DNA from: a virus
Taxonomy: Duplodnaviria; Heunggongvirae; Uroviricota; Caudoviricetes
DNA: 6,620 bases
Strand: one strand, 5' to 3'
IMG/VR virus record: IMGVR_UViG_2671180299_000021
Both the position numbers and the translations under genes were made by a program. Under the pieces are notes generated by a model. It was not told where the DNA came from and ran no database searches. It saw only the letters and a program-made list of their open reading frames with translations. This document shows, piece after piece, positions 535 to 6,620 of the stretch (within the stretch, counting starts at the first letter, position 1; each line of letters starts with the position of its first letter).

Positions 535-815
535 ATAGCATCAATCCAAGTAAAAATGCGTTTTCATTTCACATTAACTTACAGCCATTGGTATACGATT
601 AGGTATACGTACAAAAACTGAATTAAACAAAATCATTAAAAATCAAAGCAATACAGTATTTATTCAAACTCCGCCAGCCCACCAATCATGATTGGACGGT
701 GTAAGGACAACACCAACAAAAACAGGAAGTTAGCAGTCTCAGCAGGACACCGACCAGACGGTGAGGAGACAAAAAAGGATACGCAAAGGAGCCGCGGCTC
801 TCAAGTGTGAAAGAA

Positions 816-2405: not shown

Positions 2406-2618
2406 CTATTTATGATGTAATCCGGACATCAGTTCATGGACAAGATTATCTCTTTCATTGTGTTGCAACCGTAAATGCATAGCAAAAAGGTGAGCACTAT
2501 CCTCATTCCTCTTCAAGCCATGCTGTTCAAGATACCCGAAAAAACGGCTTCTCTTATCCGCTATTTCCTGAGTCTGACGTGCAACATTTACCAAATTTTC
2601 TAGCGTTTTTCTTGGCAT
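2406..2618 (-). CDS. Hypothetical small protein, 70 aa (cargo gene C), immediately downstream of pin on the same strand
   Basis: ORF with strong Shine-Dalgarno AGGAGG 7 nt upstream of the ATG (plus-strand 2616-2618 = CAT). Product (MPRKTLENLVNVARQTQEIADKRSRFFGYLEQHGL...) not recognised. Confidence 0.65.
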   Translation of the reverse strand: MPRKTLENLVNVARQTQEIADKRSRFFGYLEQHGLKRNEDSAHLFAMHLRLQHNERDNLVHELMSGLHHK

Positions 2619-2659
2619 ACTATTTCCTCCTGAAATTGTTGTAATTCACTAGGATATTC

Positions 2660-2687
2660 ATTTTAATTTGTATCATTTAGTACCAAA
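2660..2687 (-). promoter_or_regulatory. Candidate sigma70 promoter for gene C (-35 TTGGTA/TTTGGT, -10 TAAAAT on the minus strand)
   Basis: Read by eye on the minus strand: TAAAAT (plus 2660-2665) about 40 nt upstream of the ATG, with a TTGGTA-like hexamer 15-16 nt further upstream. Match is marginal. Confidence 0.25.
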
Positions 2688-2816
2688 ACCGCTATCAATT
2701 AACAAAGCCATCGTTGTGGTTTACCTTGCAGCCGTTTTTTGTCATTGACTCTATGTGAAAATAATGAATCATCATGAGATTGGCTCACACGTTCTTGAAT
2801 TCGACGAGCTGTGTCT

Positions 2817-3371
2817 TTATTTATCTCCTGCCGGAAACCTCTGATACAAAGTCGATACGCCAACATCATAGATAATCGCAACTTTCTGGCGCGGAACTCC
2901 TGATGCAATTAATCGTCCGGCTTGTGCCCATTGTTCTGGTGTAAGTTTGGGACGACGTCCACCAATTCGTCCCTGTGCGCGAGCAGCTTCCAGTCCAGCT
3001 TTTGTTCGTTCAACAATCAGTTCTCGTTCCATTTCAGCCAGGGCCCCCATCACATGAAAGAAAAAGCGCCCCATTGGGGTACTGGTATCAATTGAATCCG
3101 TCAGACTACGAAAGTTGATGCCTCGTTCGCGCAACTCCTCCACCAGCACGACAAGATGCCGCATACTGCGCCCCAGTCGGTCCAGTTTCCAGACCACCAG
3201 CGTATCGCCTGCCGATAATGTCCTGAGCAGTTTTTTCAGTCCCGGCCTTTCGGACTTTGTACCGCTTATCTTGTCTTCAAAAATCAGCTCGCATCCTGCA
3301 CAGTTCAGCGCATTACGTTGTAGATCTGTGTTCTGGTCATTTGTTGACACACGTACATAGCCAATAAGCAT
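2817..3371 (-). CDS. pin: Serine-recombinase DNA invertase Pin (Hin/Gin/Cin/Pin family), 184 aa
   Basis: Translation MLIGYVRVSTNDQNTDLQRNAL... carries the resolvase/invertase N-terminal catalytic motif (YVRVSTxxQ, Ser10) and a C-terminal HTH region (VAIIYDVGVSTLYQRF). Length of 184 aa fits Pin. GGGAG Shine-Dalgarno sits 8 nt upstream of the ATG at 3371; the track ORF starts 12 codons earlier at 3407 with no SD. Lies next to an invertible tail-fibre segment. Confidence 0.95.
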   Translation of the reverse strand: MLIGYVRVSTNDQNTDLQRNALNCAGCELIFEDKISGTKSERPGLKKLLRTLSAGDTLVVWKLDRLGRSMRHLVVLVEELRERGINFRSLTDSIDTSTPMGRFFFHVMGALAEMERELIVERTKAGLEAARAQGRIGGRRPKLTPEQWAQAGRLIASGVPRQKVAIIYDVGVSTLYQRFPAGDK

Positions 3372-3397
3372 GGTAGATCTCCCTGACAAAAGCAGGA

Positions 3398-3910
3398 ATG
3401 ATGCCATTTGCTCGTTATTTCTGCATTTTCATAAACGTTGGTTTGGGAGAAGGTTCGGCATTACCCGTTGGTGTGCCTGTTCCGTGGCCTTCCGCCACTC
3501 CGCCAACGGGGTGGCTAAAATGTAACGGAGCAGTATTTTCTTCTGAAAAGTACCCAAATCTGGCAAAGGCTTACCCAACATTAAAATTACCAGATTTACG
3601 CGGTGAATTTATTCGTGGCTGGGATGATGGGCGCGGGATTGACTCTGGTCGTAACTTATTATCTGCACAGAATGATGCAATTCAGAATATTGTTGGTTCT
3701 TTTGGGCGTACCCAGCTTTTTAGAGACGTACTTAGTTCAGGGCCATTTAGTCAACATGGGCAAGTATTATCTACAGGTCTAAAGGAAGCCGAAATTATTG
3801 AGGGTTATGGCGCTTATAACTGGACATTCGACGCATCTCGCTCAGTTCGCACAGCATCTGAAACCCGCTCCCGTAACATCGCCTTTAATTATATTGTGAG
3901 GGCTGCATGA
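3398..3910 (+). CDS. Alternative tail-fibre C-terminal (receptor-binding) cassette, currently in the silent orientation (stfE-like); functional coding starts at the crossover site near 3434
   Basis: Translation contains the conserved tail-fibre C-terminal signature (...PTLKLPDLRGEFIRGWDDGRGIDSGRNLLSAQNDAIQNIVGSF...). The frame enters from the crossover site (NVGLGE). No independent SD; the upstream ORF portion overlaps the pin start in antisense. Confidence 0.8.
   Translation: MMPFARYFCIFINVGLGEGSALPVGVPVPWPSATPPTGWLKCNGAVFSSEKYPNLAKAYPTLKLPDLRGEFIRGWDDGRGIDSGRNLLSAQNDAIQNIVGSFGRTQLFRDVLSSGPFSQHGQVLSTGLKEAEIIEGYGAYNWTFDASRSVRTASETRSRNIAFNYIVRAA
3426..3451. other. 26-bp recombination (crossover) site, pin-proximal (pix/gix/hix-like)
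   Basis: TTTTCATAAACGTTGGTTTGGGAGAA is an inverted copy (21 of 26 positions identical) of the site at 5371-5396. Both encode N-x-G-L-G-E in the tail-fibre reading frames, and the central dinucleotide is TT here against AA at the partner. Confidence 0.7.
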
Positions 3911-4512
3911 TAAGTAAAGCTGTATTAAATAATGAACTCATCGCCACAAAGGCCGGAGACATTACCGTTTATAATTATGATGGTGAAACACGGGAATATA
4001 TTTCCACATCAACTGAATATCTTGCTGTGGGTGTTGGTATCCCGGCATGTTCCTGTTTAGATGCTCCTGGCTCATATAAAGCTGGTTATGCAATTTGCCG
4101 TTCTGCAGATTTTAACTCATGGGAATATGTGCCAGACCATCGCGGTGAAATCGTCTATAGCACCGAAACAGGAGAATCAAAAGAAATCACAGTTCCGGGT
4201 GATTACCCTGAAAATACAACCACTATCGCCCCGTTAACGTCATACGATAAATGGGATGGTGAGAAATGGGTGACCGATACTGAGGCACAGCATAACGCCG
4301 CAGTAGACGCGGCAGAAGTACGGCGCCAGTCACTGATTGATGCTGCTATGGCTTCCATTAGTCTGATTCAGCTGAAATTGCAGGCCGGGCGGAAGCTGAC
4401 GCAGGCAGAAACAACCCGGCTTAACGCTGTGCTGGATTACATTGACGCGGTGACTGCAACAGATACCAGCACCGCGCCGGATGTCATCTGGCCTGAACTA
4501 CCGGAGGCGTAG
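3907..4512 (+). CDS. Tail fibre assembly protein (Tfa family), partner of the silent cassette, 201 aa
   Basis: ATGA start/stop overlap with the preceding cassette (translational coupling). C-terminus ...NAVLDYIDAVTATDTSTAPDVIWPELPEA is the typical Tfa chaperone motif. Confidence 0.85.
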   Translation: MISKAVLNNELIATKAGDITVYNYDGETREYISTSTEYLAVGVGIPACSCLDAPGSYKAGYAICRSADFNSWEYVPDHRGEIVYSTETGESKEITVPGDYPENTTTIAPLTSYDKWDGEKWVTDTEAQHNAAVDAAEVRRQSLIDAAMASISLIQLKLQAGRKLTQAETTRLNAVLDYIDAVTATDTSTAPDVIWPELPEA

Positions 4513-4927
4513 GCCATTCAATATCTGGAGCACTGGAGGTATCAACCAGTTCCAGTGCGTCCAGATAATCCAGCCATAAATTATATTGTTCCAGCTCGTA
4601 ACCTTTCAGACGACCAATAGCAGCTTTGCCAGGCCACTGATGGGTATTGATGTAGGTATTGACTTCTGAAACCAAAGATATCTTTTTCATTTCAGCCGCC
4701 AGCATCTCATCCTCTTTTGAAGGCGGCGGGGAATTAATCCATATTGGCCGTCCTGAACTGTCAGCGCCAATTTCTTTCCCTTCTGGATGCAGCCCAAGAA
4801 ATTGCTCATATGTTTCTCTGGTAATTTCAATAACATCATCAGGAAGCGTTCCCGCATCCTCATATTCTGGAAACAATTCTTGCAGATAAAAACTTTTACT
4901 TGCGGGTGAAAAGAATACTGAGTTCAT
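4484..4927 (-). CDS. Tail fibre assembly protein (Tfa family), partner of the currently expressed tail fibre, 147 aa
   Basis: C-terminus ...LWLDYLDALELVDTSSAPDIEWPTPP is the Tfa signature. Starts 2 nt after the stf stop on the minus strand. Confidence 0.85.
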   Translation of the reverse strand: MNSVFFSPASKSFYLQELFPEYEDAGTLPDDVIEITRETYEQFLGLHPEGKEIGADSSGRPIWINSPPPSKEDEMLAAEMKKISLVSEVNTYINTHQWPGKAAIGRLKGYELEQYNLWLDYLDALELVDTSSAPDIEWPTPPVVQAR

Positions 4928-4929
4928 TC

Positions 4930-5673
4930 TTACCGTCCAATGATTAACGCTGAGACGCTGGTATCTGAAGGAAAGGCTGCATTCAGTGGTTTGTCGACTT
5001 TGAACACAATCGTATTATTCCCCCTGACAGCGGCAAAAGAACAAACCGCCGTCGCGTATGAACCTGTAATATTACTGGATACACCACCATAAGCTGTTGT
5101 TGATACCAGAGGGATAACGCCCAGCACCTTATTAGGAAATACAAAGGGCAATGTGGCTGTGGCAATATAAGACTTATTAGAACCTGTAATGGCATAAGCA
5201 TTATCAGTCATTCCATTCATCGCCACTGGACCGCTTATACTTACAGTAACCATCTGAATGATTAGCCCGTCAGGTTGACGAATCACAAAATTTCCATTGC
5301 CACCAGTAACCGTCCAGAAAGACATATCAGGGATTTGGTTTTCCCCGTTGCCCACATTTCGTTTTGCCGCTTCTCCCAAACCAAGGTTTTCGAGAGCCGT
5401 TTTCACCGTGCCATCAGATTTGATATCGCCAAACGGATTCTTGCGGCTTAACAGCAGCGCACGAAGCGCGGTAAGCAGCTGGTCATGCCGCCCCTTCTCC
5501 AGGCTGGCACCGGATGCCTCCACCACGCTGCAGAGTTCTTCCTGCAACATGTCAAAGTAGTCATCATCCAGATCGGTGGCAGGTGTGCCGGTCTGGGGGT
5601 TACCACGGGTAAAACCGTTCTTACCCGCGCCGAACTTATCCTTCTGCGCGGTTTTCGTGTCTATACGATGCAT
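4930..5673 (-). CDS. Side tail fibre protein, 247 aa: constant N-terminal part (5397-5673) fused to the variable C-terminal cassette in the expressed orientation
   Basis: GGAG Shine-Dalgarno 6 nt upstream of the ATG. Crossover site at 5371-5396 encodes [10 protein letters not shown] at about aa 93-102. Starts 3 nt after the upstream ymfQ-like stop. Confidence 0.85.
5371..5396. other. 26-bp recombination (crossover) site inside the tail-fibre gene (constant/variable junction)
   Basis: TTCTCCCAAACCAAGGTTTTCGAGAG has imperfect dyad symmetry around a central AA and is the inverted partner of 3426-3451. Resembles published gix/hix/cix-type sites as recalled from the literature (family consensus of the type TTnnCnnAAACCnnGGTTTnnGnnAA). 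Confidence 0.7.
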
Positions 5674-5676
5674 GGA

Positions 5677-6620
<944 letters not shown>

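Follow-up and report, generated by a model that had tools for sequence, protein, structure and literature searches.

Does the DNA between two inverted 26-bp sites in a short phage-derived sequence still invert, and, if so, which enzyme inverts it and what does the inversion switch? We studied a stretch of 6,620 nucleotides recorded as a virus of the class Caudoviricetes (IMG/VR record IMGVR_UViG_2671180299_000021), which in its whole length is called the window here. An earlier interpretation of the letters and open reading frames (the sequence-only reading) had described a Pin-controlled invertible tail-fibre segment with the architecture of the e14 P, Mu G, and P1 C systems, and had regarded the system as a known one.

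Knowledge of the Pin system of e14 dates from the 1980s, and published work shows that the e14 segment inverts within clonal cultures of K-12 (PMC4272514, PMC12529663). Kirigo et al. (2025; PMC12529663) stated that it was unclear what the e14 inversion does and reported that StfE2, a K-12 protein of the inverted state made from the stfE leader and the gp53-like StfP tip, is created by inversion of the P segment and blocks the adsorption of T2.

In the present study, we examined the sites, the invertase, and the reading frames of the window and compared them with the corresponding loci of other strains. We found that the locus is very probably a DNA-inversion switch of the Hin/Gin/Cin/Pin (Din) family, of the e14 P-segment type, which is located in a prophage truncated by an insertion sequence (IS).

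Organization of the prophage remnant

The features of the window are listed in Table 1. The remnant is 5.6 kb in length and extends from the att repeat to the IS at about 6241. Homology to IS-free loci ends at 6240, and the first seven or so codons of ymfQ are replaced by the end of the IS; from residue 8, the protein is 98% identical to K-12 YmfQ. In identical loci, the element is annotated as an IS3 family transposase. Relatives of the locus directly adjoin ssrA and carry Mu-like baseplate genes; the intact ones continue with the genes for baseplate J, gp46, and V, and the window has no upstream baseplate genes. The possibility that the locus is e14 itself was rejected, as the locus adjoins the att repeat of ssrA, not icd, and the context of its relatives contains the Mu-like genes.

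The phage genes that are left are pin, the segment, the constant part of the tail fibre (Sc), and the 5'-cut ymfQ, and these do not make up a phage capable of forming virions. Three other ORFs (894-1925, 1977-2321, and 2406-2618) gave no match in Pfam, and these three uncharacterized ORFs and both fibre ORFs gave no match in PADLOC. The sequence-only reading had added that systems of this architecture switch host range. Such switching has been established in Mu and P1 but never in the defective e14; since the present locus is a 5.6-kb remnant, no virion is made, and host-range switching is inapplicable.

Table 1. Positions of the features in the window (strand: +, plus; -, minus;., none assigned)
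Feature	Position	Strand	Remarks
att repeat, repeating the 3'-terminal 23 nt of ssrA; marks the opposite end of the remnant	663-685	+	window 663 = position 354 of a related locus, in which ssrA is annotated at 14-376
pin, DNA invertase (small serine recombinase), 184 aa	2817-3371	-	Pfam Resolvase 1.5e-51 and HTH_7 3.6e-13
Predicted equivalent of the recombinational (Fis) enhancer	3282-3353	-	pin nt 19-90, 5' end of pin
Pin-proximal ORF, 169 aa: 13-codon leader MPFARYFCIFINV and cassette A (fibre tip) in frame	3401-3910	+	Pfam Collar 1.7e-15
Pin-proximal crossover site	3426-3451	+	central TT at 3438-3439; 54 bp from the pin start codon
Invertible segment	3439-5383	.	1,945 bp core to core
tfaA, tail-fibre assembly chaperone for cassette A, 201 aa	3907-4512	+	Pfam Caudo_TAP 6e-32
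tfaB, tail-fibre assembly chaperone for cassette B, 147 aa	4484-4927	-	Pfam Caudo_TAP 6.4e-27
Whole tail-fibre ORF, Sc and cassette B, 247 aa	4930-5673	-	
Cassette B, variable C-terminal 150 aa, now fused to the constant region	4930-5382	-	Gp53-like_C borderline
Constant-region-proximal crossover site	5371-5396	-	central TT at 5383-5384 (minus) = positions 2-3 of codon Leu97
Tail-fibre constant N-terminal part (Sc)	5385-5673	-	97% identical to K-12 StfP residues 1-106
ymfQ, homologue of the Mu gp48 baseplate wedge protein	5677-6249	-	Pfam Phage_Mu_Gp48 1.1e-26
IS3-family element, left end, truncating the prophage	6241-6620	+	HTH_Tnp_1 transposase orfA

Crossover sites

The sequence-only reading had reported two inverted 26-bp sites, identical at 21 of 26 positions, within the tail-fibre reading frames, both encoding GLGE. 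Our results bear this out. The pin-proximal site reads TTTTCATAAACGTTGGTTTGGGAGAA, and the reverse complement of the constant-region-proximal site reads CTCTCGAAAACCTTGGTTTGGGAGAA. When the window was searched with the consensus of the Hin, Gin, Cin, and Pin sites (TTNTCNNAAACCNNGGTTTNNGANAA, up to two mismatches), exactly these two sites were obtained, with 0.00 matches expected from 200 shuffles. As Din-family sites are an inverted 26-bp pair, each member consisting of two 12-bp half-sites near TTNTCNNAAACC, we also scored the half-sites; both sites agreed at 17 of the 18 specified positions, and nothing else in the window reached 13/18. In a repeat search, the core of the sites was found as a 20-nt inverted repeat of 95% identity (3433-3452 and 5370-5389). 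Multiple inversion of the Min- or shufflon-like type was ruled out, as the window holds only two crossover sites.

An identical, non-palindromic central dinucleotide in both sites enforces inversion in this family. In the window, the dinucleotide is TT in both sites, asymmetric and in inverted orientation. Translation of the two strands gave GLGE in frame at each site (plus strand, ...INVGLGEGS; minus strand, ...ENLGLGEAA). The sequence-only reading had made its claim depend on whether the sites align with those of homologous prophages; in fact, both are base-for-base the sites of K-12 e14, the pin-proximal one being the site that adjoins pinE and the other the site within stfP. The pin-proximal site also aligns column for column with Mu gixR, and its spacing from the start codon is the same.

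Invertase and predicted enhancer region

Pin, Gin, Cin, and Hin cross-complement one another, and in the genes of the Din family two Fis sites, matching the Fis consensus, lie 48 bp apart within the 5' end of the invertase gene. The ORF finder placed the start of pin at 3407 (196 aa); the start shared with K-12 pinE and annotated by RefSeq in the genomes that match the window is at 3371 (184 aa). An identical protein, WP_000904997.1, is annotated as pinE in RefSeq. Pin differs from K-12 PinE by 4 substitutions in 184 residues (97.8% identity) and aligns with Mu Gin (3UJ3) over residues 1-181 (E = 1.3e-93). It has the composition of a Din-family recombinase, that is, an N-terminal resolvase domain, the catalytic serine (Ser9, in YVRVSTNDQ), and a C-terminal helix-turn-helix.

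The predicted enhancer region of pin aligns without gaps with the annotated enhancer of P1 cin (nt 19-90 of cin in AF234172); 55 of 72 positions are identical to cin and 70 of 72 to K-12 pinE. Matches to the Fis consensus KNNYRNNWNNYRNNM were found at 3335-3349 and 3287-3301, 48 bp apart; in each of pin, pinE, cin, and gin, such matches are located at nt 23 and nt 71. We infer that pin nt 19-90 functions as an enhancer; because the region doubles as coding sequence, its conservation does not in itself prove that function.

If the locus works as other members of the family do, Pin dimers would bind both inverted sites, and Fis, bound to the enhancer in the first 90 bp of pin, would aid the assembly of the invertasome on supercoiled DNA. 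Ser9 would then cut both sites at the central TT, one pair of subunits would turn by 180 degrees, and religation would leave the 1,945 bp between the cores inverted.

Cassettes and reading frames

Between the sites are two convergent pairs, each of a cassette and a Caudo_TAP chaperone gene. The sequence-only reading had called the C-termini of the cassettes unrelated, and BLASTP found no similarity of cassettes A and B to each other. The start of tfaA overlaps the stop of cassette A as ATGA, and the 3' ends of the convergent tfaA and tfaB overlap by 29 bp, as in K-12. The product of tfaA is 91% identical to K-12 TfaE, and that of tfaB is 54% identical to K-12 TfaP, chiefly in the C-terminal part.

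The sequence-only reading had considered the variable domains worth comparing with those of K-12 e14, and this comparison gave a different answer for each cassette. Cassette A is 58% identical to K-12 StfE, and the DNA homology is broken at 3643-3851, where the middle is swapped; its nearest phage relatives, HK97 Stf and Citrobacter phage Omnitron, are about 66% identical. As judged from these alignments, the Collar-type cassette A is a mosaic relative of K-12 StfE. For cassette B, BLASTP gave no match in the variable part of StfP from K-12 (beyond residue 106). The score of cassette B against Pfam Gp53-like_C was 24.6 bits, just below the cut-off of 24.9, and its identity to invertase-adjoining cassettes of P2-like phages was at most 40% over about 100 aa. 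Cassette B seems to represent a gp53-like domain that is divergent and of borderline assignment. Proteins with exactly this 247-aa fusion occur commonly in E. coli, Shigella, and Salmonella, under the name 'hypothetical protein'. The list of homologues of cassette B is nearly clonal (98-100% identity).

As the sequence-only reading had proposed, the pin-distal cassette (B) is the one currently fused to the constant region. Both crossover cores are located at codon positions 2-3, in Val13 of the leader ORF and Leu97 of the fibre constant region; therefore, both ORFs stay open in either state. The 13-codon leader sits outside the invertible segment, and its own ATG is 13 codons ahead of the crossover point. 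The products are Sc+B (247 aa) and leader+A (169 aa) in the window state, and Sc+A (253 aa) and leader+B (163 aa) in the flipped state. In either state, each cassette is followed by its own Tfa chaperone gene, and the constant N-terminus of the fibre is alternately joined to two variable C-termini, each with a Caudo_TAP chaperone.

The sequence-only reading had also held that the 247-aa fibre is expressed and that the pin-proximal cassette is silent. Both statements go too far. Expression of the fibre can only be presumed, because the IS3-family element cuts the operon within ymfQ (at about 6241) and no promoter-like site above chance is located upstream of the fibre ORF. The pin-proximal ORF, in turn, is an intact ORF of 169 aa with its own ATG and is annotated as a CDS in RefSeq. 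A scan for promoters and terminators over 2600-6400 gave counts no higher than those of shuffles, and none of pin, the leader ORF, and the fibre ORF had a sigma-70-like promoter that exceeded chance. The Shine-Dalgarno sequence of the leader ORF is weak and closely spaced.

Orientation of the segment in other strains

When positions 3439-5383 were inverted in silico, window 2817-6240 matched a part of the E. coli 602687 locus exactly, whereas with inversion of 3437-5385 it did not; the crossover thus lies within 3438-3452 and 5370-5384. Strain 602687 agrees with the window in its IS3 truncation and in its pinE, tfa, and ymfQ proteins, and its annotated CDSs of 253 aa and 163 aa (the latter WP_001115559.1) are the predicted flipped products. 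Among complete E. coli genomes with this cassette pair, 38 have the window orientation and 104 are flipped. Both orientations, with the exchange at the sites, are thus found in nature by comparison between genomes, and the exact inversion in 602687, together with the two states of the 38 and 104 genomes, indicates that the switch flips in nature. From these other genomes, we infer that it also flips in the source strain, and we judge it to be a still flipping relic of a phage tail-fibre switch. The leader fusion may serve in phage defence, as its K-12 counterpart is reported to do.

The proposal of a Pin-controlled segment with the e14, Mu G, and P1 C architecture is accordingly upheld by the sites, Pin, Sc, and the inverted locus of 602687. 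That the system was already known is also correct, as identical loci in both orientations are present in RefSeq, annotated as pinE, tfaE, and ymfQ.

Discussion

The Din-family switch described above leaves room for a different enzyme. Most flips may be made in trans by a PinQ/PinR-like invertase, or by one from a P2- or Mu-like prophage, rather than by the adjacent pin. UTI89 and APEC O1 share a dead pin stub, holding only the first 123 nt of the gene, yet their segments are exactly inverted (in reverse complement, 1,927 aligned columns with 100% identity). In K-12, PinQ and PinR are reported to invert the e14 segment more strongly than PinE does, and the same paper cites the classical cross-complementation of Pin, Gin, Cin, and Hin (PMC12529663). 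On the other hand, the cis pin of the window is full length with all catalytic residues, and deletion of pinE is reported to lock the segment in K-12 (PMC12529663). We consider a trans enzyme somewhat unlikely as the main source of flips, but the flips do not have to be the work of the cis Pin.

Another explanation concerns the function and is compatible with the mechanism of inversion. The remnant may be retained since the flipped-state leader+B protein (163 aa), as an analogue of StfE2, blocks the adsorption of some lytic phage, with inversion toggling a costly protein. This idea follows from the K-12 system, in which inversion is reported to create StfE2 and to block T2 adsorption through it (PMC12529663), and the same leader ORF is present here (MPFARYFCIFINVGLGE, compared with MPFACYFFIFINVGLGE in K-12) and keeps its frame in either state. 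The remnant has kept its six ORFs intact despite the loss of the rest of the prophage, and in UTI89 and APEC O1 the segment persists beside the dead pin stub. However, cassette B has no detectable similarity to the K-12 StfP tip, its gp53-like match is sub-threshold, and none of the PADLOC models match. In addition, the Shine-Dalgarno sequence of the leader is poor, as mentioned above, the promoter scan found none, and the K-12 claim comes from one paper and is based partly on over-expression and docking (PMC12529663). We regard defence as the reason for retention as rather doubtful. An extended form of the idea appears improbable: the host would keep the remnant as a recombinase-switched anti-phage module, the 163-aa leader+B protein would block phages other than those affected by StfE2, and the many allelic cassette pairs found at this locus would form a diversifying, phase-variable surface shield that any resident invertase could flip, even where a lineage has only a dead pin of its own.

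It is also conceivable that the locus is a frozen fossil: despite intact-looking sites and pin, the segment would have ceased to invert in this strain, and the two orientations in the databases would be old inherited states. The heavy decay of the prophage and the lack of a detected pin promoter in the scan would suit this explanation. However, strains PS1Thumoskin9 and CD45 (window state) differ from 602687 (flipped) only by the exact inversion, with 99.9-100% identity, and all three have the same derived IS3 truncation. Because strains in opposite states share this derived truncation, the flip post-dates it. Pin is, moreover, intact, with only the few substitutions mentioned above relative to the active K-12 PinE, and we consider a frozen state very unlikely.

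RecA-dependent homologous recombination between the short inverted repeats is an extremely improbable cause of the inversion: the sites do share a 19/20-nt inverted repeat, and the comparative data place the crossover no finer than a 15-nt interval, but efficient RecA recombination usually requires uninterrupted identity longer than the 15 bp present here, and the repeats are textbook invertase sites beside an invertase gene, with the central dinucleotide included in the exchange interval.

We return to the inversion switch of the Din family. The feature is confirmed to be real but ordinary, namely, the known Pin switch of E. coli cryptic prophages in a short truncated remnant. Its significance is modest: the switch survives and still flips in an IS-cut remnant of 5.6 kb. 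As the cassette pair differs from that of K-12, phenotypes tied to the tips in K-12 (for example, the T2 block reported for StfE2) are not simply transferable. The flipped segment in a lineage with a dead cis invertase fits reports of such segments as shared substrates of several invertases.

Comparison with known systems

The G segment of Mu, inverted by Gin, shares the logic of a constant region and two variable cassettes with chaperones (S/U and S'/U' in Mu). In both systems the invertase gene reads away from the segment, and the distance from the site to the start codon is the same in an ungapped alignment of 210 nt. However, Mu is a complete phage, and its switch has been shown to change the host range, whereas the virion genes are missing from the window. 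The Mu segment is 3 kb and its fibres are far longer (Sc of about 170 aa, compared with 97 aa in the window), and the core dinucleotide and the half-site sequences differ.

The P1 C segment with Cin and the Min system of p15B have crossover sites of the 26-bp type, as in the window. In P1, the enhancer is in the 5' end of the invertase gene, and the Fis-consensus matches are at the same gene positions as in pin of the window. Unlike pin, P1 cin reads towards the segment, with cixL overlapping the 3' end of cin, and the P1 segment is 4.2 kb, compared with 1,945 bp here. The p15B Min system performs multiple inversion, in contrast to the two sites of the window.

K-12 e14 (ymfQ-stfP-tfaP-tfaE-stfE-pinE) has the same gene order, and in both loci the tfa genes overlap by 29 bp and a leader ORF of 13 codons lies beside the invertase gene. 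The sites are identical, and the proteins are close (Pin 97.8%, Sc 97%, YmfQ 98%, and TfaE 91%). The orientation of the window is that of the MG1655 reference, with the Collar cassette beside pin. The two differ in location (e14 at icd, the remnant at the ssrA att repeat), in the IS3-family element that truncates the window prophage in ymfQ, and in the presence of three uncharacterized ORFs instead of mcrA. Relative to e14, the Collar cassette has an exchanged middle part (3643-3851), and a replacement at 4598-5344 affects cassette B together with the N-terminal part of its chaperone. Measured core to core, the segment of the window has 1,945 bp and that of e14 about 1,827 bp. The variable cassettes (the StfP and StfE tips) are thus not the same, and the domain types are parallel: Collar and, borderline, gp53-like.

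The PinQ/StfE2 system (PMC12529663) has the same substrate architecture, with a leader ORF that gains a gp53-like cassette on inversion. The fused domain differs, being only borderline gp53-like here (24.6 versus 24.9 bits), and the window is in the 'non-inverted' state.

Inversion of the tail-fibre segment

The same IS-truncated prophage remnant was found in three complete genomes: PS1Thumoskin9, CD45, and 602687. The first two are collinear with the window, in which the constant fibre N-terminus (Sc) is joined to cassette B and the short leader ORF beside pin to cassette A; PS1Thumoskin9 has no mismatch over 5,960 aligned columns. Genome 602687 shares the IS and the pinE, tfa, and ymfQ proteins with them, but has the inner genes reversed in order and strand. 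When 3439-5383 was inverted in silico, 2817-6240 became an exact substring of the 602687 locus, and the match was lost when the breakpoints were moved two bases outward (3437-5385). Thus, the exchange took place within 3438-3452 / 5370-5384, an interval that includes the central dinucleotide. The predicted flipped products, Sc+A (253 aa) and leader+B (163 aa), are the two CDSs annotated in 602687.

Among complete E. coli genomes, 38 were collinear with the window's state over at least 80% of the pin-to-ymfQ region, and 104 with the flipped query. The K-12 segment flips within clonal cultures (PMC4272514, PMC12529663). CD45 (NZ_CP182220.1) has the module twice: as the IS-truncated remnant, oriented as in the window (1213220-1218895), and, elsewhere in the genome, as a 98%-identical copy in the flipped orientation (4308676-4312097). 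One Pin could act on both.

Features of the inversion system and the adjoining att repeat (window positions)
Feature	Position	Strand	Evidence
att repeat, copy of the last 23 nt of ssrA	663-685		sequence match
pin, small serine recombinase, 184 aa	2817-3371	-	Pfam Resolvase and HTH_7
Predicted Fis-consensus matches in pin	3335-3349 and 3287-3301	-	match to KNNYRNNWNNYRNNM
Pin-proximal 26-bp site	3426-3451	+	reads TTTTCATAAACGTTGGTTTGGGAGAA
Cassette A, Collar domain	ends 3910	+	Pfam
tfaA, Caudo_TAP chaperone	3907-4512	+	Pfam
tfaB, Caudo_TAP chaperone	4484-4927	-	Pfam
Cassette B, 150 aa, C-terminus of 247-aa ORF	ORF 4930-5673	-	ORF call
Constant-region-proximal 26-bp site	5371-5396	-	reverse complement reads CTCTCGAAAACCTTGGTTTGGGAGAA

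Crossover sites, invertase, and cassettes

As the sequence-only reading had described, the 26-bp sites are inverted, share 21 of 26 positions, and both encode GLGE inside open reading frames. The repeat finder gave their core as a 20-nt, 95% inverted repeat (3433-3452 / 5370-5389). A search of both strands of the window for the invertase-site consensus TTNTCNNAAACCNNGGTTTNNGANAA, allowing up to two mismatches, returned only these two sites (0.00 expected, 200 shuffles); both matched 17 of the 18 half-site positions, and every other 26-mer fewer than 13. Each site consists of two 12-bp half-sites flanking a 2-bp core, which reads TT in either site when that site is taken in its own orientation, so that religation is possible only after inversion. 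The core occupies codon positions 2-3 (GTT, Val13 of the leader ORF starting at 3401; CTT, Leu97 of the fibre ORF), and thus both ORFs stay open in either state. Both sites align with a homologous prophage, being identical base for base to those of K-12 e14. The pin-proximal site is 54 bp from the pin start codon, and gixR and the gin start of Mu align with this site and start column for column, without gaps.

The ORF finder gave Pin 196 aa; the start at 3371, which yields 184 aa, is shared with K-12 pinE and is the RefSeq-annotated start in matching genomes. Pin has the catalytic serine and is 97.8% identical to PinE of e14, and the crystallised Gin of Mu aligns with its residues 1-181 (E = 1.3e-93). 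Over the stretch equivalent to the annotated cin enhancer of P1 (nt 19-90), pin is identical to cin at 55 of 72 positions and to K-12 pinE at 70 of 72. In all four invertase genes, pin, pinE, cin, and gin, the degenerate Fis consensus has matches at nt 23 and nt 71. Enhancers of the Hin/Gin/Cin/Pin type have Fis sites spaced 48 bp apart, as are the matches in pin. Because the region is also coding sequence, these points are only suggestive of an equivalent enhancer within pin. The anatomy fits the Hin/Gin/Cin/Pin invertasome model.

Between the sites are, as had been read, two convergent cassette and chaperone pairs, and BLASTP detected no similarity between cassettes A and B. Among sequenced phages, cassette A has its best relatives at about 66% identity (HK97 Stf and Citrobacter phage Omnitron). 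For cassette B, identity to the best relatives does not exceed 40% over about 100 residues, and most of these are cassettes next to invertase genes in P2-like phages. Exactly this 247-aa fusion protein is commonly encoded in assemblies of E. coli, Shigella, and Salmonella, under the name 'hypothetical protein'.

The prophage remnant and its surroundings

We rejected the assignment of the locus to e14 at icd, since the att repeat copies the ssrA end and relatives adjoin ssrA. These related genomes carry the module immediately next to ssrA and have Mu-like baseplate genes (J/gp47, gp46, V) on the far side of ymfQ. The window has no such continuation: homology to the ssrA-adjacent loci ends at 6240, where an IS3-family element starts, replacing about the first seven ymfQ codons. 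The tailed-prophage remainder (about 5.6 kb) comprises three ORFs with no assigned function, pin, the invertible segment, the constant region, and the 5'-cut ymfQ. RefSeq places the new ymfQ start at a GTG within the IS end (6249). A match to Rfam isrC (Hfq-binding sRNA, RF01387; 6305-6427, plus strand; 150 bits, E = 1e-37) lies in the 5' part of the element and overlaps the start of the transposase orfA.

Positions 1-523 match one end of the satellite phage P4 genome at 94% identity, namely the 3' end of the alpha (primase) gene and the crr cis-replication region. They contain two 120-bp direct repeats (224-343 and 404-523; 80% alike, 180-bp spacing) and four exact TGTTCACC iterons, compared with 0.26 expected by chance. 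A P4-like island and the tail-fibre remnant therefore occupy one att site in tandem.

Of the three ORFs between the att repeat and pin (894-2618), those of 343 aa and 114 aa are on the plus strand and that of 70 aa is on the minus strand; none had a Pfam or PADLOC match. K-12 e14 has mcrA at this position, and other genomes have different cargo (a DUF262 gene, a KAP P-loop NTPase, or a ClpP-like protease); the spot has the appearance of a hotspot for variable cargo or defence genes. In strain 23AR1101 (L002, 5156-7669), pinE at this ssrA locus has an internal stop, and the cassette pair, both annotated gp53-like, differs from the window's. The strain thus shows cassette allelic turnover and invertase decay at the ssrA site.

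Agent and function of the inversion

A second invertase could plausibly flip the segment in trans. In both UTI89 and APEC O1 (2500-4650 of loci L008 and L009, respectively), all that is left of pin is the same stretch of its first 123 nt, adjoining a DUF262 gene; this stub retains the enhancer equivalent and the adjacent site. The UTI89 segment is the reverse complement of that of APEC O1, with 100% identity over 1,927 aligned columns, which implies flipping in trans after the cis gene died. In K-12, PinQ and PinR, encoded by different cryptic prophages, are reported to invert the e14 segment more strongly than PinE does (PMC12529663).

The physiological role of e14 inversion was previously unclear (PMC12529663). 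K-12 StfE2 (stfE leader and StfP tip), made from the leader after inversion, is reported to block T2 adsorption (Kirigo et al. 2025, PMC12529663). By analogy, the leader-fusion protein here may possibly serve phage defence; however, its cassette tip is unlike that of K-12, and no PADLOC model matched. We consider it improbable that the leader+cassette B protein blocks adsorption in a phase-variable manner.

It is unlikely that the segment is a frozen fossil that no longer inverts, since the derived IS truncation is common to all three genomes and the flip thus post-dates the reduction to a remnant. RecA recombination across 15 identical bases is a very unlikely source of the inversion.

The sequence-only reading took the 247-aa fibre to be expressed and the pin-proximal cassette to be silent. 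The former goes beyond the evidence: the IS cuts the operon upstream of the fibre gene, and the promoter scan gave no signal above chance. Transcripts of ymfQ and the fibre gene, if there are any, would need to emerge from the IS end. Silence is doubtful: the cassette belongs to a 169-aa ORF that is intact, has an ATG of its own, and is annotated in RefSeq as a CDS. The proposed host-range switching is established for Mu and P1, but not for e14, and cannot apply to this remnant.

Comparison with K-12 e14

The constant fibre N-terminus is 97% identical to StfP residues 1-106 of K-12, YmfQ 98% to its namesake, and TfaA 91% to TfaE. The alignment with e14 that had been proposed for the cassettes gave 58% identity of cassette A to StfE, with the ends conserved and the middle replaced (DNA homology breaks at 3643-3851), and no detectable similarity between cassette B and the StfP tip. 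TfaB is 54% identical to TfaP, chiefly in the C-terminal part. Cassette B scored 24.6 bits against Pfam Gp53-like_C (cut-off 24.9), and StfP 58.7 bits. From these scores, both loci would pair a Collar-type tip with a gp53-like-type tip, the window's second tip being a different, very divergent allele.

The inverted sites and the fusion of the pin-distal cassette to the constant region are confirmed, and the interpretation as a Pin-controlled inversion system is supported by the e14-identical sites, the close identity of Pin to PinE, and the flipped 602687, with the caveats on expression, silence, and host range. The locus is of the already known e14-type, and its sequence is present in public genomes in both orientations. 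It differs from K-12 in two respects: the chromosomal context, here an IS-cut, ssrA-adjacent remnant in tandem with a P4-like island, and the cassette alleles.
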